From positions 1,732,616 through 1,796,615 of the forward strand of contig CP054190.1 in assembly GCA_015709575.1 (NCBI GenBank): 64,000 bases of DNA, read 5' to 3'. The notes beneath the pieces were generated by a model. It was not told the origin of the DNA and did no database searches. It worked only from the letters and a program-made list of their open reading frames with translations. Source of the DNA: Planctomycetia bacterium (GTDB lineage Bacteria; Planctomycetota; Phycisphaerae; UBA1845; Fen-1342). This document shows, in pieces, positions 6,026 to 48,851 of this stretch. Every line of letters begins with the position of its first letter. The stretch's first letter is position 1. A program made the position numbers and the translations under genes.

Positions 6026-6478
6026 TCAGTTACTGACGATCCATGCGTCCGAAGCGCGGGTGTAGCTCACCAACTCCTCGGGTTTGAAGAAGAGTTCCAG
6101 TTCAAACTTGGCCGTTTCCGGGCCGTCGCTGGCGTGCACGAGGTTGAACTGCTTGTCGATGCCGAAATCGCCGCGAATCGTGCCCGGCGCGGCCTGACGT
6201 CCGTCGGTCGCTCCAAGCATCGTTCGAACGACCGTGATCGCCTGTGGCCCCTCGATCGCTGCAACCACGACCGGCCCGCTGGTCATGAATCCCACCAGCG
6301 ACTTGTAGAACGGGCGGTCCTTGTGCACCTCGTAGTGGCGGGCCACAATCGCATCGGGGGTCTTCTGCAAGCGCATGCCGATGATCCGCAGCCCCTTATC
6401 CTCAAACCGCGCCAGCAGGCGGCCGATCAATCCGCGCTGCACGGCGTCAGGCTTCACAATGATGAGCGTACGTTCCAT
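6026..6478 (-). CDS. ndk: Nucleoside diphosphate kinase
   Basis: MERTLIIVKPDAVQRGLIGRLLARFEDKGLRIIGMRL...TIRGDFGIDKQFNLVHASD is a canonical NDK sequence with typical length. Confidence 0.95.
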   Translation of the reverse strand: MERTLIIVKPDAVQRGLIGRLLARFEDKGLRIIGMRLQKTPDAIVARHYEVHKDRPFYKSLVGFMTSGPVVVAAIEGPQAITVVRTMLGATDGRQAAPGTIRGDFGIDKQFNLVHASDGPETAKFELELFFKPEELVSYTRASDAWIVSN

Positions 6479-6687
6479 CTCTGATTCGACTCCTGCGTTT
6501 CTTCATGCACTTTGGCCGCGGCTCAGCCGCGCCGGCGCCACCGCCGCGCCGGTCCCAAACCGGTCCAATCGTTGGCAGGGATCTTACCGCCGCGACCGCG
6601 GCGCGAACACTCCGCCTGGCACGCGGTCCCAGTCGCGTTCCGCGGCCGATTCACGGTCGATCGCGGGGGCAGCTATGCTCGGGCGCA

Positions 6688-8836: not shown

Positions 8837-9607
8837 TCATAGCGTCTTGGGCGAGGCCCGCACGGGCGCGGCTGTGTCGCCGTCGCGCTTCGGGCCGCCG
8901 GCTCGAATGTCGCGCCGCAGCGCCAGCAGTTCCCGAAACGCGCGAAAAATCACGCTCAGGCGCGCCCCGGTTTGCTGCCCGGCGGTGCGCGGATAGTGCG
9001 AGACGTCGATCTGGCCGATCGAATAGCCCAGCCGCTGGGCACGGGAGAGTACCTCGGTGTCGATCAGCGCGCCGGTGCTCTTCATATCGATGCGATCGAA
9101 GAGCGAACGCGGATAGATCTTGAACGCGCCGTCGATGTCGCGGATTCGCAGGCGGAACAGCGCACGCACCAATGTCCCCCAGGCCCATGCGTTGAGGCGG
9201 CGGATCCACGGGTCGCGACGCTGCCGGCGATAGCCGGACACGATGTCGTAGCGCTCCAGCAGGGGCAGCAGCCGCGGTAGTTCGCCGATGTCAAACTGCC
9301 CGTCGCCGTCGGTGTAGAAAACCCACGTCTTGGTCGCTTCGCGGAAGCCACGCGACAGCGCCCCGCCGTAGCCGCGGTTCGGCGAATTGTGCACGACCCG
9401 CACTTCGGGGAATTCCGCTGCAAGGCGCTCGGCGATTTCTCCGGTGCGGTCGCGGCTGCCGTCGTTCACGATCAGCACTTCGAGGTCGTCGGCAACCTTC
9501 CGTCCGACTTCGACGGCCGATCGGGTCACGCGCTCGACGTTGGCCTCCTCGTTGTAGCAAGGAAAGGTGATCGTGAGTGAGAGGGGGGAGCGCGGCGGGC
9601 GGGTCAT
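8837..9607 (-). CDS. Family 2 glycosyltransferase (polyprenol-phosphate sugar synthase-like, Dpm1/ArnC/GtrB type)
   Basis: LTITFPCYNEEANVERV...EVLIVNDGSRDRTGEIAE...NRGYGGALSRGF...YTDGDGQF is a typical GT2 DxD-containing core. Confidence 0.8.
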   Translation of the reverse strand: MTRPPRSPLSLTITFPCYNEEANVERVTRSAVEVGRKVADDLEVLIVNDGSRDRTGEIAERLAAEFPEVRVVHNSPNRGYGGALSRGFREATKTWVFYTDGDGQFDIGELPRLLPLLERYDIVSGYRRQRRDPWIRRLNAWAWGTLVRALFRLRIRDIDGAFKIYPRSLFDRIDMKSTGALIDTEVLSRAQRLGYSIGQIDVSHYPRTAGQQTGARLSVIFRAFRELLALRRDIRAGGPKRDGDTAAPVRASPKTL

Positions 9608-10038
9608 GGGTCGGTCCTTTGGCTGTCATTGCAGGGCGGCGCCCGGCGCGGGCGAGCCGCATCCTGTCGGGCAAGCAGAGCCGGGCAGGCGGGGCGCAGA
9701 TACAAGCCAAATCATGGTGAGATGCCGTGCGAGCGCGGACGAGCGCTGGTACGACCGTAACCAATTGTCATATATGTGATTACGGGCGGCCGTCGGCGCG
9801 CCGAGATGAAAAAATCGGCCGAGCAGGCAGGGTGCATGTATTTCGCTGCGGGGCCGCCGCTCTGAAGGGGCGTCTGCGGAGCATTCCGCGGAACACCCGG
9901 TCGCAAAAGGGGCGCCGCGGGTGGTCCGGGAGAGTGGGCCGCGGCCACGGTCCGAAGCGTCGGGCCGGCGACGCGGAACGCACCGGGTTGGTGCGGCGGC
10001 TGCCGGAAACGCACCGGGCCAATGACGGAGATGGAACC

Positions 10039-10992
<954 letters not shown>

Positions 10993-11155: not shown

Positions 11156-11587
11156 ATGCGGATGCGAACGGGAAATGGAAAGTGGCTGATGATCAGTGCG
11201 GCGTTCCTGGGTGCGCTGGCGGGATGTGTCAGCGATGCCGCGGATTCCCTGCTGAACGCAGTCACGGATGCGGTTCGCTCGGTCGGCGGCGCCAGCGTCA
11301 ACGGGAATACGAACGGCGGTGGCACTGCTAACTCAAACGCCAATTCGTCCGGATCAGGAAACCAGAACGGCAACACAAACGCGTCCAACTCGAACTCCGG
11401 TTCCGGCGGCTCGTCGAACGGCAATTCAAACAGCGCCGGCCCAACGAACGGGAACTCCAACTCCAGCGGGAACGGCAACTCGAACGCGGCTGGCAACACG
11501 AATGGCAACACCAGCGGCGGCACGAACAGCAACACCAGCAGCGGCGGGAACGGCAACGCCAATTCCGGCGGCGGCGACGACGACTAA
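11156..11587 (+). CDS. Paralogous Asn/Ser/Gly-rich lipoprotein
   Basis: MRMRTGNGKWLMISAAFLGALAGCVSDAADSLLNAVTD shares the lipobox and the CVS-x3-SLL-x-AV-x-D start with the preceding gene. The remainder is an N/S/G/T low-complexity region ending GGGDDD. AGGAG lies upstream. The start is ATG 11156 or 11162. Confidence 0.75.
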   Translation: MRMRTGNGKWLMISAAFLGALAGCVSDAADSLLNAVTDAVRSVGGASVNGNTNGGGTANSNANSSGSGNQNGNTNASNSNSGSGGSSNGNSNSAGPTNGNSNSSGNGNSNAAGNTNGNTSGGTNSNTSSGGNGNANSGGGDDD

Positions 11588-11640
11588 CGCGGAGCCGGGT
11601 GTATCACGGCGATGCGGACCTGGTCCGTGGAGGGCCTCAC

Positions 11641-14061
11641 GTGAGTATCGCGGCTTCGGTGCTTGTTCGGGACGCAGCCCCTCCGCGGAGCGCGGACGCG
11701 CGGCGCACATTGCTGGTCGCGCGCGCACCGGCCATGGCATATTGGATCGAGTCACTGCTTGTCGGGGCGATCTCCGTCGCGCTGATGTCATTTCTGTACA
11801 GCGGTTCCGGCGGCCCGAACGGAACGGAAGTCGGTGTCCCGGGAAATGACTCGTCCTATCACATCCGCATGGCGGCGATGCTGCCGACGCACGGGCTGGT
11901 CGGTCAATTCCCCTGGCTGCAATTCGCCTGGTTTCGAGACGCGGGGGAGGCGTTTGTCAGCCATCACTATGGCTTCCACCTCCTGCTGATGCCCTTTGTC
12001 CTGGTCGCTGAGGCGCTCGGCGCCGATGCGATGACCGGCGGCCGCTGGGCGACCACGGGCTTTTTTGCCATCGTATTGGCGCTCATCAACGGTCTGTTGC
12101 GGCTTGGAAACGTCCCGTTGCGCTGGCTCTGGATCAGCCTGCTGCTGGTGCTGCCGGAGCATTTCTTCTTCCGGCATGCCCTGGTCCGGGCCATCGCACC
12201 GTCGCTGATGCTGCAACTGGCGGTAGTCGCTGCACTGCTGGCGCGGCGACCGGTCGCGCTGGCCGTGTGCGTTGCCGCGTATAACCACCTGTACCTCGGC
12301 GCGGTCATGTTCTCGCCCGTGATCCTGCTGGCATTCGCGGTCGCCCATCTTGCGTCTGGGCGCGAGGACCGCCGCAGGGCACTGCGAATGTGCGCGGCGG
12401 GTGCGATCGGCTGGCTGGCGGGCGTTCTGACGTATCCCTACTTCGCCGGCATGCGAGAGTTTCTCTGGCTGCAGGTCTTCGGTACGGGACTGACGCCCGA
12501 CATCGAAGTGGGCGTCGAGTGGTCCTCGTACGGAAATGTGTGGGACTTCGCGACCCGCATGTGCGGGCCGCTGCTCGCGATCTGGTGCACAGCGCTCGTC
12601 CTGCGCCTGCGCAGCGGCCCGCCGCTCTCGCCGACGGAACTGACGCTGTTGTTCCTGCATCTGGGGTTCCTGCTGTTGACGCTCAAGGCGCGGCGGTTCA
12701 TTGAATACTGGCCGGCATATGCGCTACTGTCCGCTGCCTGGCTGTCCGCGCCGCCGATCCGGGCGTGGCTGCACCCCGCGCAGGCTTCGCGCTGGGCCGG
12801 TTTTCGGGGACCGGTCATTGGCGTGATTGCGCTGGCAGGAATCGGCCTGGTAGCCTTCTTCGCGTGGCGGGCCGGGCGACCCGGGGGTTCAGATGTCCTG
12901 CTGCTCGGCGCTGCCCTGGCAGCCCTCGTCGGCGGAATTGCCTGCCTGCAGGCGCTTCTACAGGCTGAAGGGCGAGCTTTGCGGAGGGTGCTGGTTGCCG
13001 CAGCGGCGCTCGCTGCCGCGGGGGGCACGGCTTCGGCGGCGGTGATGCTGCGGGCTGATGCGCTGCGACACGCCCGCGATGAGCTTCGCTGTCCCTACGA
13101 CCTGGCCGCCATCCGTGACATGATGGGCTTCATCAAGGCCCAATCCGCCCCGGGCGAGGTCATCTTCACCGACGATTGGGACACGTTCCCGGTGTTTTTC
13201 TATCATAACACGCACAACCACTACGTCGTCGGCCTGGATCCGAAGTTCACGCACGCCCGCCGCCCGGATCTCTGGGAGCGCTATGTGCGCATCACCCGCG
13301 CCCAGGTTCCCCACGAAGGGCGAGTCAAGCGCCATGGCGCGGATGGCAGCGTTTCCTACGAACCGATCCGCGTCGAGCTGGCTGACATCCGTCGCTTCTT
13401 CGGGGCGCGCTGGGTGATCTGCGACCGCGACCATCGCGGACTCGCCGCGGCGCTGGCGCGCGCCCCCGCGCTGGCCGAGCTGGCGTACCCGGTGAAGAAC
13501 TATGCCGACGTGCACGATGCTCCATACGTCGTATTTCGCATTCGCCGCGAGGACGAAACGCTGCCGGCGGAGTCGGCCCTATCGGCCCGGGAACTCGGCG
13601 ACGTCGTGTTCCTCGGCGACCTCGCGCCGACGCACTCCGAGCAGGGTTGGGGCGAACTGCGGGTGGATCGTTCCGTCGCCGGAGGTCCGATCCGCATCGG
13701 TGGAATGACCTATCTGCGCGGATTGGGCACGCACGCCCCGTCGCGGATCGAGTTTCGCATCCCGGATGGCTACGACACGTTCGAGGCCGTCGTCGGCATT
13801 GATGCGTCGCAGAGCGCGGCGGGATCGGTGGTCGTGCGCGTCGAGGTGGACGGGGTTGAGCGCTTCCGGTCGTCGCTCCTTCGCGGCGGAGCCGAACCAC
13901 TGACAGTACAGGTTCCGATAGGCGTGGGACGCACTTTGTCATTGTTCTCGGACGCTACCAACGACGGCGATACCAGTGATCACGTCAACTGGGCGTTCGC
14001 ACGGCTGCTGCGAACCGTCGATTCCGCCGACGTCGACCCAACCGACCGCAAGGGGCCGTAA
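11641..14061 (+). CDS. Large multi-pass membrane protein (GT-C-like architecture, unassigned family) with C-terminal NPCBM-like carbohydrate-binding domain
   Basis: The N-terminal ~450 aa hold many TM helices. The C-terminus GWGELRVDRSVAGGPIRIGGMTYLRGLGTHAPSRIEFRIPDGYDTFEAVVGIDASQSAAGSVVVRVEVDG...SDATNDGDTSDHVNWAFARLL matches the NPCBM/NEW2 pattern. GTG 11641 is preceded by GGAGG at 7 nt. The track start 11599 and ATG 11734 are alternatives. Confidence 0.6.
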   Translation: MSIAASVLVRDAAPPRSADARRTLLVARAPAMAYWIESLLVGAISVALMSFLYSGSGGPNGTEVGVPGNDSSYHIRMAAMLPTHGLVGQFPWLQFAWFRDAGEAFVSHHYGFHLLLMPFVLVAEALGADAMTGGRWATTGFFAIVLALINGLLRLGNVPLRWLWISLLLVLPEHFFFRHALVRAIAPSLMLQLAVVAALLARRPVALAVCVAAYNHLYLGAVMFSPVILLAFAVAHLASGREDRRRALRMCAAGAIGWLAGVLTYPYFAGMREFLWLQVFGTGLTPDIEVGVEWSSYGNVWDFATRMCGPLLAIWCTALVLRLRSGPPLSPTELTLLFLHLGFLLLTLKARRFIEYWPAYALLSAAWLSAPPIRAWLHPAQASRWAGFRGPVIGVIALAGIGLVAFFAWRAGRPGGSDVLLLGAALAALVGGIACLQALLQAEGRALRRVLVAAAALAAAGGTASAAVMLRADALRHARDELRCPYDLAAIRDMMGFIKAQSAPGEVIFTDDWDTFPVFFYHNTHNHYVVGLDPKFTHARRPDLWERYVRITRAQVPHEGRVKRHGADGSVSYEPIRVELADIRRFFGARWVICDRDHRGLAAALARAPALAELAYPVKNYADVHDAPYVVFRIRREDETLPAESALSARELGDVVFLGDLAPTHSEQGWGELRVDRSVAGGPIRIGGMTYLRGLGTHAPSRIEFRIPDGYDTFEAVVGIDASQSAAGSVVVRVEVDGVERFRSSLLRGGAEPLTVQVPIGVGRTLSLFSDATNDGDTSDHVNWAFARLLRTVDSADVDPTDRKGP

Positions 14062-14273
14062 CCATGATGCTTGCAACCGAGGTAGACGCGGCCACGCGGG
14101 CGCATCAGTCCCGCGCTCCAGCGGCTCTCGCTGCCACACAAGACGCAGCGCGCTTCGCCAGGAATGTTCGCAACGCATTCGAGGAGGATCCTGGTCGCGA
14201 TCACCCGTCGGGAGGGCTACAATCCGGCGGCCGCGGGCTTCCGACCGGTTCGCGCTTCAATTCGGGAAATCGA

Positions 14274-14831
14274 GTGCAGCGAAGCGATGCCGATCTGGTC
14301 CGTCTTTGCATCGACGGCAATGCAGACGCCTGGAACGAGCTGGTGGACCGCTTCGGTCGGCTCGTTTACTCCATTTCGATCAAGTGCGGCTTGGCGGGAA
14401 ATGACGCGGATGACGTCTTTCAGACGGTGTTTGGCATCGTTCTGCGCAAGCTGAACGAACTCCGCGACGAATCCCGCCTCGCCGGTTGGATCGGACGAAC
14501 GGCCCAGCGAGAAGCCTGGCGCATGCGCCGCCGCCGGCGCGGCGAGCCGCTCACGCTTGACGACGCGGCTGAGCCGGCCGCGGATGATGACGTTGATCTG
14601 GCCCGCGCCGAGCAGCAACACATCGTTCGTCGCGGATTGTCGGAATTGGGCGGCCGCTGCCAGGAATTGCTCGAGGCGCTCTTTCTCGGCGCGGACGACC
14701 CGGATTATCAGACCATCGCCGAGCGCCTGGGTATCCCGGTCGGCAGCATCGGTCCTACCCGCGCCCGCTGCTTCACGAAGCTCGAAGCGATCCTGAAAAA
14801 GCTCGGAATCGCGGATTCGGACGTGGAATAG
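14274..14831 (+). CDS. ECF-type RNA polymerase sigma factor (sigma-70 regions 2 and 4)
   Basis: Region 2 reads DLVRLCIDGNADAWNELVDRFGRLVYSISIKCGLAGNDADDVFQTVF...AGWIGRTAQREA. Region 4 reads LGGRCQELLEALFLGADDPDYQTIAERLGIPVGSIGPTRARCFTKL. The track ORF starts at 14064, but those 70 codons have poor G/C third-position bias. GTG 14274 gives a typical 185-aa ECF size. Confidence 0.85.
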   Translation: MQRSDADLVRLCIDGNADAWNELVDRFGRLVYSISIKCGLAGNDADDVFQTVFGIVLRKLNELRDESRLAGWIGRTAQREAWRMRRRRRGEPLTLDDAAEPAADDDVDLARAEQQHIVRRGLSELGGRCQELLEALFLGADDPDYQTIAERLGIPVGSIGPTRARCFTKLEAILKKLGIADSDVE

Positions 14832-14927
14832 GTCCATGGTCGGCGACCCGCCCCGTCCCGATTTTCTAACCGGCTGTATTTCTTTGGCCCGCCCGGCGCT
14901 CTGGCTACAGTGTCAGGAGGTCTCACG

Positions 14928-15560
14928 ATGTCGGAATTGAAGATCAACCCGGAACTGCTGCTGGCCTGGGCCGCCGGCGAACTCTCGGCTGCGGACGTGA
15001 CCGCCGTTGAAGCGGTGCTGGCCGGCGCGCCGGAGCTTGCCCGTCGGGCCACCCGATTTCGGAAAGTGGTCGAGTTGATGCGGACGGATGACTCGCGCCC
15101 GGTCCCCGCGGCGCTGCTGACGGAGGCGAAGTCGCTGTTCGCCGAACGGCGAACCGCAAAGGTGGGGCCGGGTTGGCTTGAGTCGCTGAAGCGCGTCGTG
15201 GCGGCGCTGGTGTACGACAGTCGACCGCGCGGTGCGCTTGCGGGGCTGCGGTCTGGCGCGTCGGACAGCTTCCAGCTTTCCTACGAATCCGAGCTGGCGG
15301 ATGTGGACGTTCAGCTTGACTCGCTGCCGTTGGACGCCGGCGATCCGCCGCGGTGGCGCATGCTGGCGCAGGTCACTCCGCACGGCGACGCGGCGGTTGC
15401 GTCGGCTGTGCTGGTGCATGCCGGGACGCTGGATGCGGTGGCCGAGGTCCGTGCCGATGAAACCGGATTGATTCGAATTGACGTTTCCAGCGGGCGGTTC
15501 GACCTGCTGGTGGCCGTGGGGGCCGACGTGATCGTGGTGCCGGGAGTCAGCCCGGAATGA
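14928..15560 (+). CDS. Soluble anti-sigma-factor-like protein (anti-sigma-domain-like N-terminus, no TM helix, no zinc motif)
   Basis: ATG 14928 follows GGAGG at 7 nt. INPELLLAWAAGELSAADVTAVEAVLAGAPELARRATRF resembles the helical N-terminus of ECF anti-sigma factors. It lies immediately downstream of the ECF sigma gene. Its stop overlaps the next start (ATGA at 15557..15560). Confidence 0.5.
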   Translation: MSELKINPELLLAWAAGELSAADVTAVEAVLAGAPELARRATRFRKVVELMRTDDSRPVPAALLTEAKSLFAERRTAKVGPGWLESLKRVVAALVYDSRPRGALAGLRSGASDSFQLSYESELADVDVQLDSLPLDAGDPPRWRMLAQVTPHGDAAVASAVLVHAGTLDAVAEVRADETGLIRIDVSSGRFDLLVAVGADVIVVPGVSPE

Positions 15561-18391
15561 ACGCGACCGAACGAGACGGCGGCGGGACGGAATCGGCGGC
15601 GGCAGTGCTGGATCAACTGTCGGCGCTGGCGCCGGAGCATCGGTCCGCGTGGCTGCGCGCCAGGGGAAACGTAGCGGCCGTCCTGATCGAGCTGGCGGAG
15701 CTGGTCGAGACGCTGGCGGTCAGTGAGGTCAAGGCGGCGCTTCAGGCCGGTGCGCTGATTGAGGCCGTTGCGGCGGAACTGGCCCCCGGAGCGACCGAGG
15801 CGCGGGTTCGTCGCGCATGCGCACAGGCGCTGGCCTATGGCGGGCGCTTCGAGGAGGCACTGCGGACGCTTGACACCGCCGTGTCGGCGGCGGAGCGGGC
15901 CGGCAGCGCCGTCGAGGCCGCCCGCGCCCGAATGGCCAGCATGCACGCGCTGAATCAACTGGGCCGCTATCGTGAATCAATCGCGGCCGGGGATGCGGCG
16001 CGGGAGGGCTTCCTGGCGGCGGGCGAGCCGGCACAGGCCGCGCGCGCGGATGCAAACCTGGGCGCGACCTATCGAATGCTGGATAACCCACAGGGGGCCT
16101 TGCGCCACTATGACCGCGCTCGTCCCATTCTTGCGGCCGATCCGGGCGCAACGGCCCAGCTCGACGCGAATCGCGGTGTGGCGCTGATGGATCTGGACCG
16201 ATTCGACGACGCCGCGCGAGCCTTCGGCAGCGCGCTGCCGGTCTTCGATAGTCGCGGAATGGGCTGGGCCGCGGCCATTGTTGAAGGCAACCTCGCGGAA
16301 TTGCGGGCGCGGCAGGGGAGGATCCAGGCGGCACTCTCCCATTACGAGCGGGCGCGCCGGCATCTTGAATCCGACGCGGCGGACGCCGAAGTAGCGCGCA
16401 TCCTGGGTGAAGAGGGGGATGCGCTCGCGCTGGCGGGCGCGTTGGAGGACGCGCAGTCGAGCTATGAGCGCGCGTTGCCGGCGCTCGAGTCGCACGGTCT
16501 GGTGACGGAAGCGGTGCGCGCGAGACTCGGAATCGCACGGGTGCTGATGCAGCGGCGGCGGCTGCGGGAAGCGGACCTGCTGCTCGCCGACGTCGCGGAG
16601 CGCTACGCGAGCCTGGGCCAGCACGCGGCCCGCGGCCGGGCGCAACTGCTCCGCTCGGAAGCGCGCCTGGCGCAGGGAGACCTAGATACCGCGGCCGAAC
16701 TGGTCAGCGATGCGCTCGCATCCCTGGCGGATCGGCCGACGGAGCGGGCGGCGGCGCTGATCCAGCGGGCCGACCTGCTCCGCAGCCGCGGTGACATCGG
16801 CGCCGCGCGGCGCGACGTGGAGGAGGCGGCCGCCATCGCCGAATCGCTTGACCTGGCGCCCCTGCGGGCCGAGGCGGCGAGGCTGCACGCGGCTCACGCT
16901 CGCGCCGCCGGCGACCCGAGCGCCGCCATCGGCCACCTGCGTGAGTCTGTCCGACAGGTCGAGCGCGTGCGCGGCACGTTGCATGCGCAGCGCTTGCGGT
17001 CGGCGTTCCTCGGGCGGCGGCTGGCGGCGTATGAGGAGCTGGTGCAGGCGCTGCTCGATCGCGGCGGGCCGCGCGATGTGGCGGAGGCCTTTGACGTAAT
17101 CGAGCGTGCGCGCAGCCGCTGGCTGCTCGATCAATTGCAACCGGCCGCCCCAACCGAGCCGAATGGCCTGGAGGGTGCGGAAGACCCGCTTGAGACAGAA
17201 CTGGCGTCGGTGCAATCCGAGCTGAACGGCCTGTACAGCCGCGTGGCTGACGGCGACGGCGGCGCCGCCGCGGGGGACCGGCGCGAGGACATTCGCCGCT
17301 GCGAGCAGCGCCTCGCGCAACTGGAGAGCCGCATCGCCAACGCGCGCGGCGCGGTGAGCCTTTTTGCCCCGCCGGCCCCGGTGTCAGACGTGCAGCGACG
17401 CCTGGCGGCGGGGGAGCGCCTGATCCAGTTCTTCACCGCCGGCGACGAACTGCTGGCGCTGGTGCTGTCGCCGGACGAACTGACCGTACATCGTCGCCTG
17501 GGCGTGAACTCCCAGATCGCCGACCGGGTGCAACAGGCCGTGTTCCAGGTGCGGCGGGCGCTGCGCCCGGGCGCCACGGACGGTTCGCGCGGCGAGCGCC
17601 TGCTGACGGACACGAAGCGCGCCGCCGCAGCGCTGTACGACGCGCTGATCGCGCCGCTCGAGCCATCGCTGCGCGGGGCGTCGCGCCTGATCATCGCGCC
17701 GCACGGATCGCTGCACGCGCTGCCATTCGCGGCGCTATGGGACGGCGCGGCGTGGCTGGTGGAGCGCTTCGAGATTGAGCACGTCATCAGCGGCAGCTTG
17801 TTCCGCTCGATGGTGCGCGAGGAGTCCGGCGCGAGCCGGGCGCTGGTGGTGGGGGTGGCGGATGATCGCGCGCCGCAGATCGCCGCCGAAGCGCGGCAGG
17901 TAGCGTCGCGATTCAGCAACGCCACGTTGCTGCTGGGTTCAGAGGCGACGGTTGCAAACGTGATGCGGACCGCCCCGCTGGCGCAGGTGCTGCACCTCGC
18001 GGCGCACGGGCACTTTTCGAGCGACTCGCCGCTGAGCAGCGGGCTGCGCCTGGCGGATCGCTGGCTCACCGTGAGCGATATCTGCCGGATGAAGCTCGAC
18101 GCGCGCCTGACCGTGCTGAGTGGGTGCGAGACGGGTCGCAGCGTGGTGGCAGCCGGAGACGACCTGCTCGGGCTGCTGCGCGGGTTCGTCGCCGGCGGCG
18201 CTCGGCGGCTGCTGGCCAGCCAGTGGACCGTGCCGGATGCGGCCACGCTGAGACTGATGGATGCGTTCTATGATTCCTGGTGCGGCGGAATGCCGGCGGC
18301 CGCAGCCCTGCGGCGCGGCCAGCTCGCGCTGCTGGCCGAACAACCTCATCCGGCGGCGTGGGCCGGATTCATTCTCATAGGTGCTGCATGA
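15557..18391 (+). CDS. TPR-repeat + CHAT-domain (caspase-like) protease, cytoplasmic
   Basis: The N-terminal ~600 aa are Ala/Leu/Arg-rich TPR-like helical repeats. The C-terminus reads LIIAPHGSLHALPFAAL...VLHLAAHGHF...LTVLSGCETG...LASQWTVPDAATLRLMDAFY, the CHAT His/Cys dyad pattern. No signal peptide is present. Confidence 0.85.
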   Translation: MNATERDGGGTESAAAVLDQLSALAPEHRSAWLRARGNVAAVLIELAELVETLAVSEVKAALQAGALIEAVAAELAPGATEARVRRACAQALAYGGRFEEALRTLDTAVSAAERAGSAVEAARARMASMHALNQLGRYRESIAAGDAAREGFLAAGEPAQAARADANLGATYRMLDNPQGALRHYDRARPILAADPGATAQLDANRGVALMDLDRFDDAARAFGSALPVFDSRGMGWAAAIVEGNLAELRARQGRIQAALSHYERARRHLESDAADAEVARILGEEGDALALAGALEDAQSSYERALPALESHGLVTEAVRARLGIARVLMQRRRLREADLLLADVAERYASLGQHAARGRAQLLRSEARLAQGDLDTAAELVSDALASLADRPTERAAALIQRADLLRSRGDIGAARRDVEEAAAIAESLDLAPLRAEAARLHAAHARAAGDPSAAIGHLRESVRQVERVRGTLHAQRLRSAFLGRRLAAYEELVQALLDRGGPRDVAEAFDVIERARSRWLLDQLQPAAPTEPNGLEGAEDPLETELASVQSELNGLYSRVADGDGGAAAGDRREDIRRCEQRLAQLESRIANARGAVSLFAPPAPVSDVQRRLAAGERLIQFFTAGDELLALVLSPDELTVHRRLGVNSQIADRVQQAVFQVRRALRPGATDGSRGERLLTDTKRAAAALYDALIAPLEPSLRGASRLIIAPHGSLHALPFAALWDGAAWLVERFEIEHVISGSLFRSMVREESGASRALVVGVADDRAPQIAAEARQVASRFSNATLLLGSEATVANVMRTAPLAQVLHLAAHGHFSSDSPLSSGLRLADRWLTVSDICRMKLDARLTVLSGCETGRSVVAAGDDLLGLLRGFVAGGARRLLASQWTVPDAATLRLMDAFYDSWCGGMPAAAALRRGQLALLAEQPHPAAWAGFILIGAA

Positions 18392-20862
18392 ATCTGGCAG
18401 CCGGACGTACGGGCCTCGTCGTCGTCACGCTGTGCGCGGCGACGTTCGTCCCGCTGACAGCGGTGGGCCAGCCGATCGATCCGATTGTTCCCGACCAGGT
18501 GATGCTGCGTCTGGCTCCCGCTTTTTCTGTCCAGCAGTTCAACGCCCAGCATGGCAGCACGACGCTGCGAAGCGTCGCCTCCCGGCACATCTATCTCGTG
18601 CAGACGCCGCCCGGGACGAACTCCGCCGCGTTTGAGTCGCTGGTGAGAAACGCGCCGGGCGTGGTCTGGGCGGAGGCGAACTATCTCGGCGATGCGCCGG
18701 AGGGCACCGCCCGGCAGTTCTATTTCAATCTTGCCGACGACCCCGGCGTGTTTCTGTCGCAGCCGGCGTTCGACCAGGTGAACCTGGCCGAAGCGCGGAT
18801 GACGGTCGGGGGCGCGGGCGTGATGGTCGCCGTGATCGACTCCGGCGTGGATGCTTTTCACCCGGCGCTGCAGGGACGGATCGCGCCCGGCGGATATGAC
18901 TTTCTGCTGCGGGCGCCGACGGCGCCGGACATCGGCGATGGCACAGACAGCGACGGTGACGGACTGGTGGATGAAATGGTGGGTCACGGAACGCACGTGG
19001 CGGCGCTGGTGGCCGCGGTAGCGCCGCAGGCGATGATCCTGCCGTTGCGCGTGCTGGACGGCGACGGCAACACCGACAATTTCACCGTCGGCGAGGCGAT
19101 GTTCTTTGCGATCGACGCCGGCGCGGACGTGATCAATCTCAGCCTAGGCTCGACGTACGAATCCAAGATCGTCGAAGACGCCGTGGCCGAAGCGCTCTCG
19201 CGCGGCGTGGTGCTGGTCGCTGCCAGCGGCAACAACAACGCCCTGCAGCAGGAGTTCCCCGCCGCGATCGGCGGCGTCATTTCGGTGGCGGCGGTGGACG
19301 GGCAGGACCACAAGACCTCGTTCAGCAACTTCGGAAATTCGATCGCGCTTACCGCGCCCGGCGTTGCGATTCGCTCGGCCATTCCGGCCGCCCAGTATGC
19401 CGATTGGGACGGCACCAGCATGGCGACGCCGCTGGTCTCCGGCGCCGCGGCGCTGATCCTGGAGCGAAACGCGCATTGGACCGCGAACGGTTTGCGGGCG
19501 GCACAGGTGCGCCTGATGCTGCAGCGCTCGGCCGCGAGCGTCGATGTCGAGAACCCCGGCTTCGACGGGCTGCTGGGAGCGGGTCGGCTCGACATCGGTG
19601 CGGCAGTCGCGGCGCAGGCGCTGTTTGAGACCGGCGCGACAATCCCGGTCGGCGTGGGTGTGAGCGCACTGACAGCGGCGGATGTGCTCGGTGACCGCCG
19701 CCTCGATCTCCTCGCGATTCGGCCGGCCGCGCCGCAACTGGCCGTGATGGCCGGACGGCTGATGGGCGGGTTTGATTCGCCGGTGTACTTCAACGCAGGG
19801 GCTGCGCCCGATGCGCTGCTGACTGCGGACCTCAACGGGGACGGTCGCGTTGATGTCGCGACGGTGAACAACAACAGCAACAGTGTCAGCGTATTGTTGA
19901 ACTCCGCTGCGGGGTTCCTGCCGCCGGTCGTGCTTTCGGTCGGGCAGGGGCCGGTCGCGGCGGAAGCGGCCGACATCGACGGCGACGGTGACCTCGACCT
20001 GGTCATCGCGCTGGAGGATGCCGCCCGCGTCGCGATCCTGCGGAACGACGGCGGCAACTTCGCTCTGCTCAACGCCGGCAACGCCGGGACGCGGCCGGTC
20101 GCGTTGGCCGTCGCCGATCTTTCGGGCGATTCATTGCCGGATGTTGTTGTGGCCGATCGGCGCGGCGACCGTGTGATGATGCTGAGAAACCTCGGCTCGG
20201 GCGTTTTCGCTGCGGCAGTGCCAATCGCCGTGGGAGCGGACCCGCGTGCGGTCGCCGCCGCCGACGTGGATGGCGACGGTCAGACGGATGTACTGGTCGG
20301 GTGCCAGGACGGCGATACGCTGCAGGTGCTGCGGAATGTCGGCGGCGTACTGTCGATCGCGGGCACGTGGCAGCTCCCGCTGGGGGCGGACCCCGAGCAG
20401 ATCCGAATCGCCGACGTGAATTGCAACGGCATTCCGGACGTGGTCCTGAGCGGACTGGACGGGGCGGCGCTGCTGATGGTGATTGAGAACAAGTCACGAC
20501 CGGGCGTGTTCACGCTCGGTTCGCCGAATATTCTCTCGTCGGGCGCGCTGATCTCGGGTTGGGCGACGGCCGATCTCGACACCGACGGTGATTCGGATTT
20601 CGCCGTGTCTGACGCGGTCTCCGGCACTGTGTCCGTGCTGAAAAACATGACCTGCACGCCCCGCGTGCTCGGTGATCTGAATTGCGACGGGCGGCTGGAC
20701 TACTTCGATATTGACCCGTTGGTCACTTCGCTCGTCAACCTCGATGCATACCTGGCCATCTATCCTGGCTGCGATCCGACCGTGGCGGACATCGACCTTG
20801 ACGGTGCGGTCACGCTGTTTGATATCGAGCCATTCCTCGATCTGCTGTTCGCCGGCATCTGA
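18388..20862 (+). CDS. Secreted subtilisin-like (S8) serine protease with FG-GAP/VCBS repeats and C-terminal dockerin-like module
   Basis: ATG 18388 overlaps the CHAT stop (ATGA). The signal peptide reads MNLAAGRTGLVVVTLCAATFVPLTAVG. The catalytic triad is VAVIDSGVD / GHGTHVAALV / GTSMATPLVSGAAAL. Repeats include DLNGDGRVDVATV, ADIDGDGDLDLVIA and ADVDGDGQTDVLVG. The tail is GDLNCDGRLDYFDIDPLV...DIDLDGAVTLFDIEPFL. Confidence 0.88.
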   Translation: MNLAAGRTGLVVVTLCAATFVPLTAVGQPIDPIVPDQVMLRLAPAFSVQQFNAQHGSTTLRSVASRHIYLVQTPPGTNSAAFESLVRNAPGVVWAEANYLGDAPEGTARQFYFNLADDPGVFLSQPAFDQVNLAEARMTVGGAGVMVAVIDSGVDAFHPALQGRIAPGGYDFLLRAPTAPDIGDGTDSDGDGLVDEMVGHGTHVAALVAAVAPQAMILPLRVLDGDGNTDNFTVGEAMFFAIDAGADVINLSLGSTYESKIVEDAVAEALSRGVVLVAASGNNNALQQEFPAAIGGVISVAAVDGQDHKTSFSNFGNSIALTAPGVAIRSAIPAAQYADWDGTSMATPLVSGAAALILERNAHWTANGLRAAQVRLMLQRSAASVDVENPGFDGLLGAGRLDIGAAVAAQALFETGATIPVGVGVSALTAADVLGDRRLDLLAIRPAAPQLAVMAGRLMGGFDSPVYFNAGAAPDALLTADLNGDGRVDVATVNNNSNSVSVLLNSAAGFLPPVVLSVGQGPVAAEAADIDGDGDLDLVIALEDAARVAILRNDGGNFALLNAGNAGTRPVALAVADLSGDSLPDVVVADRRGDRVMMLRNLGSGVFAAAVPIAVGADPRAVAAADVDGDGQTDVLVGCQDGDTLQVLRNVGGVLSIAGTWQLPLGADPEQIRIADVNCNGIPDVVLSGLDGAALLMVIENKSRPGVFTLGSPNILSSGALISGWATADLDTDGDSDFAVSDAVSGTVSVLKNMTCTPRVLGDLNCDGRLDYFDIDPLVTSLVNLDAYLAIYPGCDPTVADIDLDGAVTLFDIEPFLDLLFAGI

Positions 20863-29451: not shown

Positions 29452-31023
29452 TCAGCAGCGCTCGACGACGACGATCGTCATGTCGTCGGCCTGGTGCAGC
29501 GATCCTTCGCGGCGGTCGAGCGCGCGCTGCAGCGCCTCAATCAGGGCCGTCGCTCCGAGCGGCGCCAGTTCGCGCAGCAGGGGCGCGAATGCCGGCCGCG
29601 AGCGGCTGTCCGCCGCCGGAAGCAGCAGGATGTCCTCGAGGCCGTCGGTGTAGAGGATGATCTTGTCGCCCGGGGCGAGCGCGATGCGCACCTCGTCGAA
29701 GTCGGGGGGCATGTCCGGCACGCCCAGCAGCGGACCCTCGGGCGTCAGCTCACGCAGTTCGCCGGCGGCGCTGACGAACAGCGGATAGGGATGGCCGCCG
29801 CGGGAAACGCGCAACTCGTGAGTGCGGGTGTCGATCGTGCCATACACGGCCGTGACGAAGTTTTGGCTGGGCAGGTTTTGACGCGCGAGCGCCTCGTGCA
29901 ACAGCGCGAGCGCCTCGACGGGCTGCTCGATGCGCGCGCCGGGCGCGTCAAGCGGGCGACCGTGCAGCGTTTGCCGGAGGAACATCGTCATGATGCCGGC
30001 GGCCAGGCCGTGCCCCATGGCGTCGGCAAGGAACACGCCCACGTGATGCTCGCCGATGCGGAAGAAATCGTAGAGGTCACCGCTGACCCAGGTGGCCGGC
30101 TGGTACAGCGCGGCGCATTGCAGACCCGGCAGCGAGAGCGTCGCATTGGGGAGGAAGTCGCGCTGCAGGCGACCGGCGAGGCGCAGCTCCTGATCGACCT
30201 CGGCGAAATAGCGGTTGAGCTGGCGGCCCAGGCGCTCGAGATGCTCGATCTCGCGCTCCAGCCGCGTCACCATCGGGCCGTAATGCGAAAGCGTGAGCAG
30301 GCGTCCGATCAGCTCGTCCACCGCGGTTTCCGGCGGTGCGAACTCGACGTTGCCGGTCGCGCCGGCCGCGCTTTGCGCCTGTCCCCACACCAGCACCGGC
30401 ATTCCCTGGGCGGAAAGCGAATCGACGATCCGGCTGAGATCAGGCGTTGGTCCAACCGGTGCCGGGAGTGGGGTGCGTTCGGACGAACCTGCCATGCTCC
30501 CGGCGCGGCCAAGCGCGGATGGTGGCGAGTGGGTGGTAATTGCCGGGTCGGCGGTGATGATGAGTGCGACTTCGCTGATCGTGCCGAATCCGGACAGGTG
30601 GGCCGCGGCGCTCGCGCTGATGGATGCGATCGAGTCCGTCGCCGTGCCGCCGTCTGAGGCGCCGGAACCGGCGAATCGTGCTGAGGAGGCCGGGCGTGGT
30701 ATCTGGCCGTCGGCCGCTGTCGCCTGCCCGGTAAGGGTGCCCGTGGGCAGGGGGGTCGAATCCAGTCCGCGGCGCTGCGCAGCGCTGGCGAAGGCCGCCG
30801 CGCGTGCGTCGTCGAAGGACAGGACGCGGATTCTGGGGGCGCGCAGCATCGGCGGGCTTTCCGAGGCGACGGGAGTGCGCAGCGCACCGCGCGCAGCGCC
30901 TTCCCACGAGGATGCCTTCGGAGACGCGGGGGCAGCGCTTAAGCGGAAGGTGCTGAAACAGGCGATTGCCGAGCGCCCGGCCATTCGTGCGCGAAGCTCG
31001 CCGCCTGCGGCAGGTCCGATCAC
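29452..31023 (-). CDS. PP2C/SpoIIE-family serine phosphatase with degenerate receiver-like N-terminal region
   Basis: The C-terminus reads LQRDFLPNATLSLPGLQCAALYQPATWVSGDLYDFF...VFLADAMGHGLAAGIM...SRGGHPYPL...ILYTDGLED...ADDMTIVVVE. The N-terminus has RIRVLSFDD...ALIITAD...MPVLVW, reminiscent of a CheY-like fold. The start is uncertain (ATG 30849 is an alternative). Confidence 0.75.
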   Translation of the reverse strand: MIGPAAGGELRARMAGRSAIACFSTFRLSAAPASPKASSWEGAARGALRTPVASESPPMLRAPRIRVLSFDDARAAAFASAAQRRGLDSTPLPTGTLTGQATAADGQIPRPASSARFAGSGASDGGTATDSIASISASAAAHLSGFGTISEVALIITADPAITTHSPPSALGRAGSMAGSSERTPLPAPVGPTPDLSRIVDSLSAQGMPVLVWGQAQSAAGATGNVEFAPPETAVDELIGRLLTLSHYGPMVTRLEREIEHLERLGRQLNRYFAEVDQELRLAGRLQRDFLPNATLSLPGLQCAALYQPATWVSGDLYDFFRIGEHHVGVFLADAMGHGLAAGIMTMFLRQTLHGRPLDAPGARIEQPVEALALLHEALARQNLPSQNFVTAVYGTIDTRTHELRVSRGGHPYPLFVSAAGELRELTPEGPLLGVPDMPPDFDEVRIALAPGDKIILYTDGLEDILLLPAADSRSRPAFAPLLRELAPLGATALIEALQRALDRREGSLHQADDMTIVVVERC

Positions 31024-32446: not shown

Positions 32447-32728
32447 ATGGGTTTGCATTTGATCCGCGCTGGGTGACCGGTTTTGCGGTTGCACAACGAT
32501 TTGCACTTGGGTTGGGGTGGAATCCGCACTATCTTAACGTGATCTTTGCGATGTAGCGGTAGAGTCGCAGCCGGAAGGTTGGAAAAAGCAGCACCCGTCT
32601 TTGATAGCGGATCGCCGGCGTCGCGTGGCGGCGTTGTGCGTTTGCGGAATTCGCGGCGCGGTCGCCGCGCGAATCGATTACGAGTGGATCGCTTTGGAAC
32701 GGCGGACCCCCTAACTCGAGGAGCAGAC

Positions 32729-35700
32729 ATGGGTATCGGGTCGAAGATTACGCGCTGTTGCATGACAGCCGTGCTGGCCACATTTTGTGGCACAGCGCTG
32801 GCCGCCTCGGACCTGGTGATCAGCCAGGCCTACGGCGGCGGCGGGAACACCGGTGCGACGTACAACCGCGATTTCATCGAGATTTTCAATCGCGGTGCCT
32901 CGCCGATCGATCTTGCCGGCAAGTCCGTGCAGTATGCGTCGGCGACGGGCACGTCCTGGTCGAAGTTTGACCTGCCGACGTTCACCCTTCAGCCGGGTCA
33001 GTACTTCCTCGTTGGCGGTGCGAGCGGTGCCAACGGCGCCGCGCTGCCGACGGTGGACGGTTCGAGCAGCATCAACCTGGCGGCTGGTGCGGGCAAGGTC
33101 GCACTGGTGGACAGCACGACGGCCCTGACCGGCAACGGCTGTCCGATCGCAGCGCCGATCATCGACTATTTGGGATTCGGTGCCACGGCGAACTGCTCGG
33201 AGGGCACGACCACACCGACGATCAGCGGCAACGTCACTGCGAACATCCGCAATGATGACGGTTGCACGGACACGGATGACAACGGCGCGGACTTTTCGCA
33301 GGGCACACCGACCCCGCGCAACTCCTCCTCGACGCTGAATCCGTGCGGTGGAGACCCGACCGGCGCCTGCTGCGATTCGAACACCAACACCTGCTCGCTG
33401 ACTACCGCAGCGGCGTGCGTCGGCGCAGGGCTGAGCTATCTCGGCGACGGTGTGAGCTGCGGGTCGAACGCGTGCGGCTTTCCGACCGGCGCTTGCTGCA
33501 ACGGCGGCGTCTGCACGATCAAGAACAACCAGGAGTGCACGGCCGGCAGCGGCACGTACCAGGGCAACGGCTCGACCTGCACGCCGAATCCGTGCGTCAG
33601 CTGCATCAACATCGCGGCGGCCCGCGCGGCGGCCCCGGGGTCGTATGTGAAGCTGTGCAACGTCGTGATCGCCTCGACCGAGGACCTGATCAATTCGGCC
33701 ACCAGCAAGAGCTTCACGCTTCAGGACGCCAGCGGCGGCATCACCGTCTTCGGCACCAACGCCGTGATCGACGGCATCCTGCTCGGACGCACTGCCGGAG
33801 ATCGCATTGATCTTGAAGGCACGACCGGCATCTTCAATGGCCTGTCGCAGATGATAGCGCCGTTCGGGCCGGTCACGTTCGTGGACAGCCCCGGCGTTCC
33901 CGCCGCGCAGCTTGTCACCGGCGCGGACTTCGAAGAAGGCGGCCCGGGTGAGTCGTTCGAGAGCGAGATCGTGGAGGTCCGCTGCGTGACGTTCAGCACC
34001 GGCGGCACCTTCACGGGCAACGCGAACTTCAACGCGACCGACTCCAACGGCGATCCGGTCGTCGTGCGCATCTCACGGACCGATCAGGACATCGCCGGCA
34101 CGCCGATCCCGAGCGGTCCGGTGGATATCGTTGGCGTCTTTACGCAGAACGACACCACCGACCCGCGTGACGGTGGGTATCAGCTCCTACCGCGCACGCT
34201 GGCGGACTTCACGGATCCCAGCCCGAACTGCCCGCCCGCCCCGACCGGCGCCTGCTGCAACGGCCGCGTCTGCTCGGTCGTTTCAGCGGCGGTGTGCACG
34301 ACCGGCGGCGGCACGTACCAGGGCAATGACTCGGTCTGCTCACCGAATCCCTGCCTGCCGTGCGACACGACCGCCTCGGCCGAGGCGCTGCCGATCGGCA
34401 CGCGCGTCAAGCTGTGCGACATCGTGATTTCGAGCACGACCGACCTGATCAACAGCACGGCCAACAAGCATTTCCACGCTCAGGACTCGGCCGGCGGCAT
34501 CACGATCTTCGGCACGAATGCCGTGATCGACCCGCTGCTGGCGCTGGCCGGCGTGGGTGACCGCATCACGATCGAGGGCACGACCGGCACGTTCAACGGG
34601 CTGTTCCAGCTTCAGGCGCCGTTCGTGTTGATCAGCGTCACGGCGGACACGGCTCCGACGCCGGACGTGGTGACCGGCGCGGACTTCCAGGAAGGCGCGG
34701 CCAATGCGGAGTTCGAGGAGAGCCGGCTGGTTCGCCTCAACTGTGCGACGTTCGTGCAGACGGGCTTGTTCGCGGGCGTGACGACCTACCAGGTCAACAC
34801 CGGTGCAGGCCAGGTGAACGTCCGTGTTGCGACGACCGCTCTGGATCTTGTTAACCAGGCGATCCCGACCGATCCGGTGGACATCATCGGCATCTTCTCG
34901 CAGCTCGACGCGACCGATCCGCGCGACGGCGGCTACGAGCTGCTGGTGCGCTTCTACTCGGATCTGACCGGCCCGACCTGCCCGACCACCGGCGCCTGCT
35001 GTGTCGGTGTGACCTGCACGCCAGATGTCACCAGCGGCGACTGCACAACGCTCGGCGGCGTGTTCCAGGGGCTGGGCACCGGCTGCTCGCCGAACCCGTG
35101 CGTGCTGCCGACCGGTGCTTGCTGCCTGGCCGGAGTCTGCACGATTGACGAAGAGGCGGACTGCTACGCCGCGGGTGCGACGTACCTCGGCAATAACACG
35201 ACCTGCCCGGGTAGCTGCCCGAATCCGGCGGCTCAGCCGGTGCAGGCGCTGGACCTTGCCTGGGGCAGCAACAGCTCCGTCGGCGGCTCATTGCACCATG
35301 TGCGCAGCGGTTCGGTGATCGGTCGCTGGTCGGTGCGCTTCATGCAGTCGGTGGAGTTTGACAACACCGGCGGCGGCCTCGGCCACGCTCCGAACGGCAA
35401 CCTGCTCGGTGCGGATTTTGGCGATTCCTGCGGCGGCGCACCGGATGACGGCGGTGAGCTGTGGAACATCGCGACGGATGGCTCGGACCGCGCCGAGCGG
35501 CTGTTCCGCGTGAACGGGTTTGAGGGCACTGATTGCGCCCGTACCGTGGGCCTGTCGGTGAATCCGTCGAACAACCTCGTAGCGATGATGGGCCAGACGA
35601 ACGGCACGCTCTATATCCTGAACTACAACGCGGGTGCGAACCCGGGTACGGGAACGGGTGCGAGCGCGTCGGCGAATCTGTCCGTCACGACCGTCGGCCA

Positions 35701-40186: not shown

Positions 40187-40198
40187 TTGATAAATCAA
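40187..40198. promoter_or_regulatory. AT-rich palindrome TTGATAAATCAA in the divergent heme-oxygenase / kinase promoter region (weakly Fur-box-like)
   Basis: It is a perfect 5-2-5 inverted repeat. It is flanked by GATATATATAC, in the most AT-rich patch of this intergenic region. The resemblance to the GATAAT-type Fur hexamers is only partial. Confidence 0.3.
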
Positions 40199-40304
40199 GC
40201 AAACGGTGCACCGGACAGACATCGCCGTTGAAATGGCCCTGTCAGTGCCGTCCATCCGCCCTATACTTTGCGGTTGTCAGCACTTACCCGTTGTGGAGTC
40301 ACGG

Positions 40305-44831: not shown

Positions 44832-44904
44832 CGCCGGCAGCGGGTGCGGTGCAGTGACGGCCCGTGATCCCGCGCGCAGGCGCGGGTGATCCGAAGGAGC
44901 AGTC

Positions 44905-48641: not shown

Positions 48642-48659
48642 CAGCAGCTCCTTCCCGCA

Positions 48660-48675
48660 GTCAATCGCGATTGAC
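48660..48675. promoter_or_regulatory. Perfect 16-bp palindrome GTCAATCGCGATTGAC just upstream of the EEP gene RBS
   Basis: Read directly from the sequence. It lies 19 nt upstream of the start codon (48641) and abuts the GGAG ribosome-binding site on the minus strand. It is a candidate operator for a dimeric regulator. Confidence 0.35.
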
Positions 48676-48851
48676 CACCCGCCAGCCAGCGGCGCGCGGG
48701 CGTCGGCGGGACCATGCGTATGCTCAATTGAAGCGGCCGTTTCCCATCCGAGCAGCGCCGCCGTCCGGGAGGGTCCGCGTGCCTACGGATTCTAACACGC
48801 CTGTCCGCGAAAATTCCGCGCACGCGGCGTCAGAATCGCATGATTCCCGGC

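Follow-up and report, generated by a model that had tools for sequence, protein, structure and literature searches.

A cassette conserved in three bacterial phyla that combines genes for an ECF sigma factor, a soluble anti-sigma-like protein, a TPR-CHAT protease, and a secreted subtilase

Proteolysis is a well-established route to the release of extracytoplasmic function (ECF) sigma factors, both from membrane-bound anti-sigma factors (DegS/RseP) and by CRISPR-linked proteases (Csx29 and CalpL). We know of no demonstrated case in which a free-standing cytoplasmic protease of the caspase fold frees an ECF sigma factor. This work examines four adjacent genes from a Phycisphaerales planctomycete whose nearest relative is a metagenome-assembled genome (MAG) with matching local synteny. 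The genes lie on a 64,000-nucleotide stretch of contig CP054190.1 (positions 1,732,616 to 1,796,615; the whole stretch is referred to here as the window) and encode an ECF sigma factor, a small anti-sigma-like protein, a protease made of tetratricopeptide repeats (TPRs) and a CHAT domain, and an S8 subtilase. Together they form a signaling cassette that is conserved in Planctomycetota, Chloroflexota, and Actinomycetota. The reading that we prefer, and hold as quite possible but short of probable, is that the TPR-gated CHAT protease frees the sigma factor by proteolysis of the soluble anti-sigma factor, with the subtilase and a set of envelope genes as the output.

Among the closest described systems is the type III-E Craspase, in which Csx29 cuts Csx30; the N-terminal domain of Csx30 binds an ECF sigma factor, and cleavage relieves the inhibition (PMC10028731). 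In Myxococcus xanthus, the ECF sigma factor DdvS is controlled by DdvA, in which an anti-sigma factor is fused to a TPR-CHAT region with a His-Cys dyad. DdvA spans the membrane as a single polypeptide, with an anti-sigma domain (ASD) that binds zinc and a periplasmic TPR-CHAT part; its action is RseP dependent, and it regulates a CBASS/CRISPR island (PMC11506125). A further parallel is offered by the sigma factor group ECF54 of the Actinobacteria. According to a review (PMC8999054) that draws on Huang 2015 and Casas-Pastor 2021, the conserved context of ECF54 is made up of proteins with carboxypeptidase, CHAT, and subtilase domains, and proteolytic control is proposed. Casas-Pastor et al. (PMC7826278) found no recognizable anti-sigma factor for ECF54 or for its neighbor group ECF58 of the Planctomycetes and emphasized a 4Fe-4S protein near ECF54. 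Proteolytic release is plausible for the window cassette. Precedents for a protease that cuts an anti-sigma factor and so frees an ECF sigma factor are Csx29 with Csx30 and CASP-sigma and, as proposed, DdvA.

All four genes are on the forward strand (Table 1), as a preliminary description of this DNA had laid out. The open reading frames and translations agree with it, and the ATGA stop/start overlaps that it placed between the small and CHAT genes (15557-15560) and between the CHAT and S8 genes (18388-18391) are exact in the sequence. Longer open frames reach back to 14064 for the sigma gene, 14910 for the small gene, and 18280 for the S8 gene. The domain searches that the preliminary description had proposed, run here with Pfam and NCBIfam models, returned the ECF sigma, CHAT, TPR, Peptidase_S8, and FG-GAP families, and the three functional classes on which its argument turned (ECF sigma factor, small soluble partner, and TPR-CHAT protease) are present together. 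Its statement that no cas gene lies in the 64 kb also stands: Pfam scans, PADLOC, and repeat searches were all without one, Pfam analysis of ∼30 further open reading frames of the window returned ordinary chromosomal genes, and the repeat searches found no spaced array, i.e., no CRISPR array. The cassette resembles the Craspase set (Csx29, Csx30, Csx31, and CASP-sigma) in combining a TPR-CHAT protein of the same fold class with a soluble partner and an ECF sigma factor, but it has no Cas7-11, crRNA, or Csx31, and a secreted S8 protease is attached to it. The trigger cannot be target RNA.

Conservation of the gene order was assessed in a neighborhood scan with one genome per species, which gave 30 loci from Planctomycetota (Phycisphaerae, Planctomycetales, and Isosphaeraceae) and Chloroflexota (Ardenticatenaceae, Sphaerobacteraceae, and Thermomicrobiales). 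The small gene stands ahead of the CHAT gene in all 30 loci, and an S8 gene follows the CHAT gene in 27/30. Of the 27 loci that extend far enough, 26 have a sigma gene just before the small gene. Stop/start overlaps recur at both the small-CHAT and CHAT-S8 junctions, and the S8 start nearly always overlaps the CHAT stop or falls within a few bases of it. Beyond these loci, the sigma/small/CHAT core also occurs in Nocardioides genomes, a marine contig, and other metagenome contigs. In Nocardioides sp. BP30 (L004) and N. humi (L036), only the sigma, small, and CHAT genes are found, with no S8 gene and with the sigma and small genes overlapping or abutting; the Nocardioides cassettes adjoin exopolysaccharide genes (Wzz, Wzy_C, Bac_transf, and GT4). 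The small-CHAT pair is retained where S8 has been lost (L013, L028, L029, and Nocardioides). The preliminary description had named a missing synteny of the sigma-small-CHAT triplet in related genomes as the chief ground for abandoning it; the synteny is kept across phyla, and this ground therefore falls away. As a separate observation, the planctomycete MAG JADFOJ01 carries two cassettes (L013 and L021), one with S8 and the other without.

At the level of its family, the small protein is, by profile evidence, an anti-sigma-domain protein. A word-indexed homology search with it gave 3 relatives, and the family emerged with an exhaustive HMMER search, which retrieved 608 cluster representatives at an E value of ≤1e-3 and 325 at ≤1e-10; nearly all are 200 to 215 amino acids (aa) long and match from end to end. 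When 33 family members were run one by one against Pfam, 16 matched zf-HC2 (best, 3.7e-7), 4 matched RseA_N, and 9 matched CarboxypepD_reg. Comparison of the family profile with Protein Data Bank (PDB) sequences gave 12 matches, 7 of which were ASDs aligned with the N-terminal 80 residues (RslA, DdvA, RskA, ChrR, RsiW, RseA, and MucA; singly weak, with E values of 0.015 to 1.9, but consistent as a group), and the C-terminal part of the profile matched the transthyretin-like domain of NOMO2 at 2e-9. P0247, a zf-HC2/DUF5667 anti-sigma factor whose gene lies beside that of an ECF sigma factor, aligns with residues 7 to 74. In the AlphaFold2 (AF2) model (predicted local distance difference test score [pLDDT], 90.9), helices at residues 8 to 15, 21 to 33, 35 to 52, and 61 to 77 are followed by an eight-strand beta-sandwich, and the N-terminal four-helix domain has a pLDDT of >90. 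The predicted layout is a four-helix zinc-less domain (residues ∼8 to 77), a conserved loop (97 to 110), and a beta-sandwich of the transthyretin/CarboxypepD_reg type (114 to 207), and the four-helix N-terminal domain recognizable by zf-HC2 or RseA_N that marks class I ASDs is found at the family level. As described previously, the protein lacks a transmembrane helix and a zinc motif: it has zero cysteines and no hydrophobic span, and the zinc-binding (ZAS) signature H-x3-C-x2-C, absent from it, is kept only in rare relatives such as that of an Ardenticatenaceae member of the Chloroflexota (L003).

In being cytoplasmic and in pairing an N-terminal ASD with a C-terminal beta-rich domain, the small protein is like the ChrR-type anti-sigma factors; ChrR, in contrast, is a zinc-binding protein in which a cupin takes the place of the transthyretin-like domain, and no protease is dedicated to it. 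Unlike Csx30, to which it has no detectable similarity, the small protein is a class I ASD plus beta-sandwich of 210 aa. The family profile retrieved no Csx30 chain at E values up to 10 from PDB sequences that include Csx30-containing Craspase entries (e.g., 8eey), and no Csx30 is among the matches listed in the fold search.

The most conserved segment of the small-protein family is A92-x-L-V-F-D97-S98-R99-x-Q-P-A103-L-A-G106-x-R108-G110 (loop DSR-x-QPALAG-x-R-G). Among 141 sequences, D97 is kept in 99%, S98 in 92%, R99 in 96%, and R108 in 85%. The AF2 model has a low pLDDT over residues 98 to 113, with a mean of 62 for the block from 101 to 110. Because it appears flexible, is near-invariant, and lies between the sigma-binding domain and the beta-sandwich, the loop at ∼97 to 110 is a candidate site of protease recognition and cleavage or of docking.

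The protease candidate matches CHAT at 2.6e-61 and TPR_12 at 5e-19 in Pfam, and in its AF2 model (pLDDT, 89.1; predicted TM score, 0.85), ∼12 TPR pairs are connected by a helical linker to the CHAT domain. The intact caspase-like dyad noted previously is found exactly as placed, with AHGH at 18002-18013 (catalytic His817 codon, 18005-18007) and the Cys857 codon TGC of LSGCETG at 18125-18127, and neither residue varies among 28 homologues, the most distant of which share 27% identity. Foldseek ranks Csx29 (4.2e-18) first among PDB structures, followed by human separase (1.2e-17) and DdvA (4.9e-14), and the order of a TPR superhelix and then a caspase-fold CHAT domain with a His-Cys dyad is that of the separase/Craspase/DdvA type. 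The protein does not belong to the Csx29 family itself, scoring 23.6 bits against a cutoff of 300 for NF041237 in a window free of cas genes and arrays; its own orthologous family is well populated, with members of ∼940 to 960 aa that share 35 to 50% identity.

Both the ASD of DdvA (8rlz) and its TPR-CHAT part (8rw5, the Foldseek match given above) are among the matches. Like DdvA, the cassette appears to join an anti-sigma domain functionally to a separase/Craspase-type TPR-CHAT protein. Unlike in DdvA, the two are separate and both cytoplasmic, the ASD is zinc-less, and the putative regulon consists of envelope genes rather than a CBASS/CRISPR island. A metagenome protein of 1,291 aa (P0108), homologous to the window CHAT protein at 5.5e-26, holds H-x3-C-x2-C, a hydrophobic (transmembrane) segment, TPRs, and CHAT in a single chain, which is the DdvA architecture and links an anti-sigma domain to a TPR-CHAT-type protease by gene fusion.

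These features of the TPR-CHAT protein also bear on a different account, in which it acts on another substrate (the sigma factor or, as in DdvA, itself) or is a noncatalytic TPR scaffold that sequesters the anti-sigma factor by a partner switch. TPR arrays bind proteins, and ∼12 repeats are present here; self-cutting in trans has been proposed for DdvA (PMC11506125), and the Craspase work left unexplained how cleavage frees the sigma factor (PMC10028731). The invariant His/Cys dyad argues against a purely noncatalytic role, and no conserved exposed loop was seen in the sigma factor, though no search for one was made. We regard this account as improbable.

The sigma factor belongs to the ECF (group IV) superfamily, having regions sigma2 and sigma4 only, a length within the ∼180 to 200 aa of that group, and matches to Sigma70_r2 (4.4e-7; 30 bits, cutoff 24) and TIGR02937 sigma70-ECF (2.1e-15; 56.8 bits, cutoff 42.9); the match to Sigma70_r4 is subthreshold (0.0075; 16.2 bits). 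The preliminary description had placed the gene at 14274 but had extended the module leftward to 14064. The start is most likely the GTG at 14274 and not the ATG at 14064, because orthologue homology begins there (at residues 1 to 4) and the segment from 14062 to 14273 evolves like noncoding DNA, with 64% identity to sister genome L001 and nontriplet indels, versus 85% identity in coding sequence. The longer frame was rejected on these grounds. Within this upstream segment, a block that is near-identical in the sister genome has the core GGCTACAATCCGGCGG (14215-14230), ∼45 to 60 nucleotides (nt) 5′ of the GTG and containing GCTACAAT/TACAAT; for the sigma gene, it may serve as a −10 element of the housekeeping type or as a 5′ leader. 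Over the 250 nt that precede the sigma gene, an ECF-type motif is absent from all 29 loci. In several Nocardioides and Aeromicrobium genomes, two paralogous sigma factors of this family occur.

Downstream of the sigma gene, the situation is different. In related loci the sigma and small genes are almost never coupled, and are separated by a spacer of 60 to 165 nt. Of 29 such spacers, 22 contain the motif (T)GTAT[TC]-N17/18-C[TA]C[TA], where 0.11 would be expected (∼200-fold); counting a GTAC variant, the motif is present in 24 of the 29. The search form was GTAT[TC]-N16-19-C[TA]C[TA], the expectation was taken from the rest of the loci, and the observed spacing is fixed at 17 to 18 nt. The motif typically lies 44 to 70 nt before the start codon of the small gene, and in the window its CTCT is at 14899-14902. 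Its two boxes at a fixed spacing fit an ECF-type promoter; a sigma-70 consensus scan inside the module found no promoter, and terminator matches there were at chance level. The cassette sigma factor itself probably reads this promoter of the anti-sigma, CHAT, and S8 genes. Having the anti-sigma gene under a promoter that the sigma factor reads would amount to negative feedback.

The strict form of the motif occurs 3 times in the 64-kb window, and the form with an 18-nt spacer occurs twice, against 0.02 expected. The two copies outside the cassette are divergent from each other (Table 1). The copy at 9837..9863 has an equivalent in the sister genome (L001 4765), and the copy at 9677..9704 precedes a gene with a Glycos_transf_2 match of 1.2e-29. 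Extra copies outside cassettes were also found at related loci (L003 11475; L012 9165, 10239, and 14045; L021 12344; L032 11332; and L034 5125), the one in L003 (Ardenticatenaceae) being ahead of a DUF5666 gene. The two divergent copies of the window together point to a local set of envelope genes under the control of the ECF sigma factor, and those at related loci could help to delimit the regulon by comparison. The two genes downstream of the 9837 copy (∼10039..10992 and ∼11156..11587, +) encode paralogous putative lipoproteins, each with the lipobox LAGC followed by SLL[DN]AV and neither with a Pfam match; their long Asn/Thr/Ser/Gly low-complexity tracts stem from AAC-rich DNA repeated in tandem (10284-10559, 10893-10988, and 11428-11553).

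The last gene of the cassette encodes a subtilase with Pfam matches to Peptidase_S8 (2.3e-45; 155.6 bits) and FG-GAP_3 (1.8e-42). Its N terminus, MNLAAGRTGLVVVTLCAATFVPLTAVG, is hydrophobic and signal-peptide-like, as judged from the sequence, and the hydrophobic N terminus recurs in orthologues save for the irregular L031 and L035. The combination of an S8 catalytic domain and an N-terminal signal peptide agrees with the exported FG-GAP subtilase described previously, and the suggestion that this protease is a regulated output gains support from the conserved ECF-type promoter ahead of the small-CHAT-S8 genes. The dockerin-like tail attributed to it did not hold up in the same way: the tail has no Dockerin_1 match in Pfam at E values up to 1, and the resemblance is a visual one, to two Ca-loop-like D-x-[ND]-x-DG motifs. 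Elsewhere in the window, a 566-aa open reading frame (47082..48782, −) with an Ig-like region has a tandem dockerin-like C-terminal repeat (Dockerin_1, 0.0029), seen in the DNA as a direct repeat (47088-47169 and 47202-47283); its Ca-loop tail is similar to that of the subtilase.

In the mechanism that we infer, the sigma factor would be transcribed from its own, non-ECF promoter and kept inactive by the product of 14928..15560 through its zinc-less class I ASD, to which the transthyretin-like beta-sandwich is attached. The TPR-CHAT protein, translationally coupled to the anti-sigma factor, would act as a signal-gated protease, with a ligand or protein engaging the TPR superhelix. On engagement, the His817/Cys857 dyad would cut the anti-sigma factor, most likely in the exposed, invariant D97-S98-R99...R108 loop, which lies where the sigma-binding helices give way to the beta-sandwich, and degradation of the anti-sigma remnant would set the sigma factor free. 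The free sigma factor would then read TGTAT[TC]-N17/18-CTCT. From the 14875-14902 copy it would drive the anti-sigma, CHAT, and S8 genes, giving both the feedback described above and export of the subtilase; from the other copies (9837, +, and 9677-9704, −) it would drive the lipoprotein genes and the gene for the family 2 glycosyltransferase (GT2), so that the output would be a remodeling of the envelope or cell surface.

Several observations weigh against this mechanism. The anti-sigma-like helical N terminus of the preliminary description is supported for the family, but the window protein taken alone has no Pfam match, and its NCBIfam anti-sigma match (NF052375, 7e-4, residues 10 to 77) is subthreshold, scoring 19.6 bits where the cutoff is 100. 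Searching by fold with the full-length model gave weak results, with ChrR at 0.05 and Ig-like beta-sandwich matches dominating. At one Phycisphaerales locus (L023), the small, CHAT, and S8 genes occur without an adjacent sigma gene, whose place is taken by TetR-like and AhpD-like genes (6000-7330). Where the −10 element (CACA) or the −35 element (GTACGAA) departs from the usual form, the specificity loop of sigma2 and the helix of sigma4 are altered as well; this covariation is suggestive and in line with the sigma factor reading the motif, but it is confounded by phylogeny. A purely cytoplasmic switch leaves the strictly coinherited exported S8 protease unexplained. Finally, the CHAT and S8 genes are 3′ of the putative sigma-dependent promoter and so are possibly mere members of the regulon; for CHAT, its place in the operon fits a role as an output just as well.

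An alternative is an ordinary soluble sigma/anti-sigma pair in which the C-terminal beta-sandwich senses the signal, as in ChrR, and the TPR-CHAT and S8 proteins are coregulated outputs, e.g., cytoplasmic and extracellular proteases for envelope or protein turnover. The ECF-type promoter ahead of small-CHAT-S8 would place all three in the regulon, soluble two-domain anti-sigma factors exist, ChrR is among the fold and profile matches, and an exported S8 protease is unable to reach a cytoplasmic anti-sigma factor. Coregulation of this kind does not sit well with the persistence of the small-CHAT pair after S8 loss, with the translational coupling of the small and CHAT genes, or with the fusion of TPR-CHAT to an anti-sigma domain in P0108 and DdvA (PMC11506125), and conservation in the small protein peaks at a flexible loop rather than at a ligand pocket. 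We therefore consider the ChrR-like arrangement rather unlikely, and proteolytic release by the CHAT protease remains our preferred reading.

The preliminary description knew of no characterized example of such a module, which overstates its novelty: DdvA (PMC11506125) and the ECF54 context reported in PMC8999054 partly anticipate it. The cassette is accordingly a variant of protease-controlled ECF signaling that comparative-genomic surveys have in part foreseen, and it is not categorically new. As in the reported ECF54 context, CarboxypepD_reg-like, CHAT, and subtilase proteins are neighbors here, and actinobacterial versions of the cassette exist; group membership is not proven by context alone. 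A query with a Nocardioides sigma orthologue returned sigma factors of Nocardioides and Aeromicrobium and no named ECF54 member. In contrast to ECF54 as described, with no anti-sigma factor, the “carboxypeptidase-like” protein here has an N-terminal anti-sigma domain, and the cassette is without a 4Fe-4S protein.

A broader proposal, which we put forward a shade more tentatively than the release mechanism, is that the cytoplasmic, caspase-like TPR-CHAT protein serves a soluble anti-sigma factor as its own “site-1” protease, gated by a signal. It would be a free-standing equivalent, without CRISPR, of both DdvA and the Craspase switch, perhaps even the source from which they evolved, found in at least 3 phyla and hundreds of clusters and coupling an intracellular cue to subtilase secretion and surface remodeling. 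If this is true, the cassette would be a natural TPR-gated protease switch independent of CRISPR, and it would give a function to many “CHAT domain-containing” and “hypothetical” proteins of Planctomycetota, Chloroflexota, and Actinomycetota. It would also correct ECF classification, in that groups listed without an anti-sigma factor would have one. The three-gene core is present in cultured Nocardioides species, which makes the model directly testable.

The surroundings of the cassette bear on one further account, a CRISPR-independent antiphage or abortive-infection module in which a Craspase-like effector leads to defense transcription or toxicity. Its attraction is that Csx29 is the nearest fold to the TPR-CHAT protein and that the known protease/anti-sigma/ECF triads, Csx29-Csx30 and DdvA, control defense (PMC10028731 and PMC11506125); PADLOC also returned a generic “subtilase” match. 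That match was the sole PADLOC output, however, with none for the sigma factor, small protein, or CHAT protein. The neighboring genes, as identified with Pfam, encode RecR, GTP cyclohydrolase I, TruB, ClpS, a group 3 sigma factor, and Ser/Thr kinases, as well as PGM, MurJ, PhoD, and Asn synthase, and this neighborhood, housekeeping in character (RecR, GTP cyclohydrolase I, TruB, MurJ, and PGM), is syntenic with the sister genome. The putative regulon of lipoproteins, GT2, and a secreted protease and the exopolysaccharide genes beside the actinobacterial copies likewise argue against defense. A defense-island reading is unlikely, and we give the antiphage module very little credence.

Table 1. 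Positions in the window of the cassette genes and associated sequence features
Feature	Position	Strand	Basis or remark
Third motif copy, divergent from second	9677..9704	−	Ahead of GT2 glycosyltransferase gene 9607..8837 (−)
Second motif copy, TGTATTTC-N17-CTCT	9837..9863	+	Ahead of two Asn/Thr-rich lipoprotein genes
Conserved noncoding block	14215..14273 (core, 14215-14230)	+	Near-identical in sister genome L001
ECF (group IV) sigma factor, 185 aa, GTG start	14274..14831	+	Pfam, NCBIfam, orthologue homology
Candidate ECF-dependent promoter, TGTATTTC-N-CTCT	14875..14902	+	52 nt 5′ of small gene ATG
Soluble anti-sigma-like protein, 210 aa	14928..15560	+	Family profile, AF2 model, PDB profile matches
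Codons of best-conserved small-protein stretch	15216..15257	+	D97-S98-R99...A103..G106.R108.G110
TPR-CHAT caspase-like protease, 944 aa, cytoplasmic	15557..18391	+	Pfam, AF2, Foldseek
Subtilase, 824 aa: signal peptide, propeptide-like region, S8, FG-GAP repeats, Ca-loop tail	18388..20862	+	

Other parts of the window can be summarized briefly. Rfam gave no match in the window. The gene preceding the cassette (11599..14061, +) stops 3 nt ahead of the long sigma frame, and its product is a large membrane protein, polytopic and with a glycan-binding domain of the NPCBM/NEW2 type (7.4e-36) at the C terminus; the gene was considered as a part of the module and rejected, as it is common to the sister genome only. 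The largest open reading frame of the window (32543..36658, +) encodes 1,371 aa with a Lamin Tail Domain and DUF5689 and is not Cas7-11. Genes for two Ser/Thr protein kinases (40194..42674 and 44890..47049, +), of which one has a CHASE2 sensor domain, and for a phosphatase of the SpoIIE/PP2C type (29452..31023, −) show no tie to the cassette and are consistent with the signaling-rich genomes of planctomycetes.

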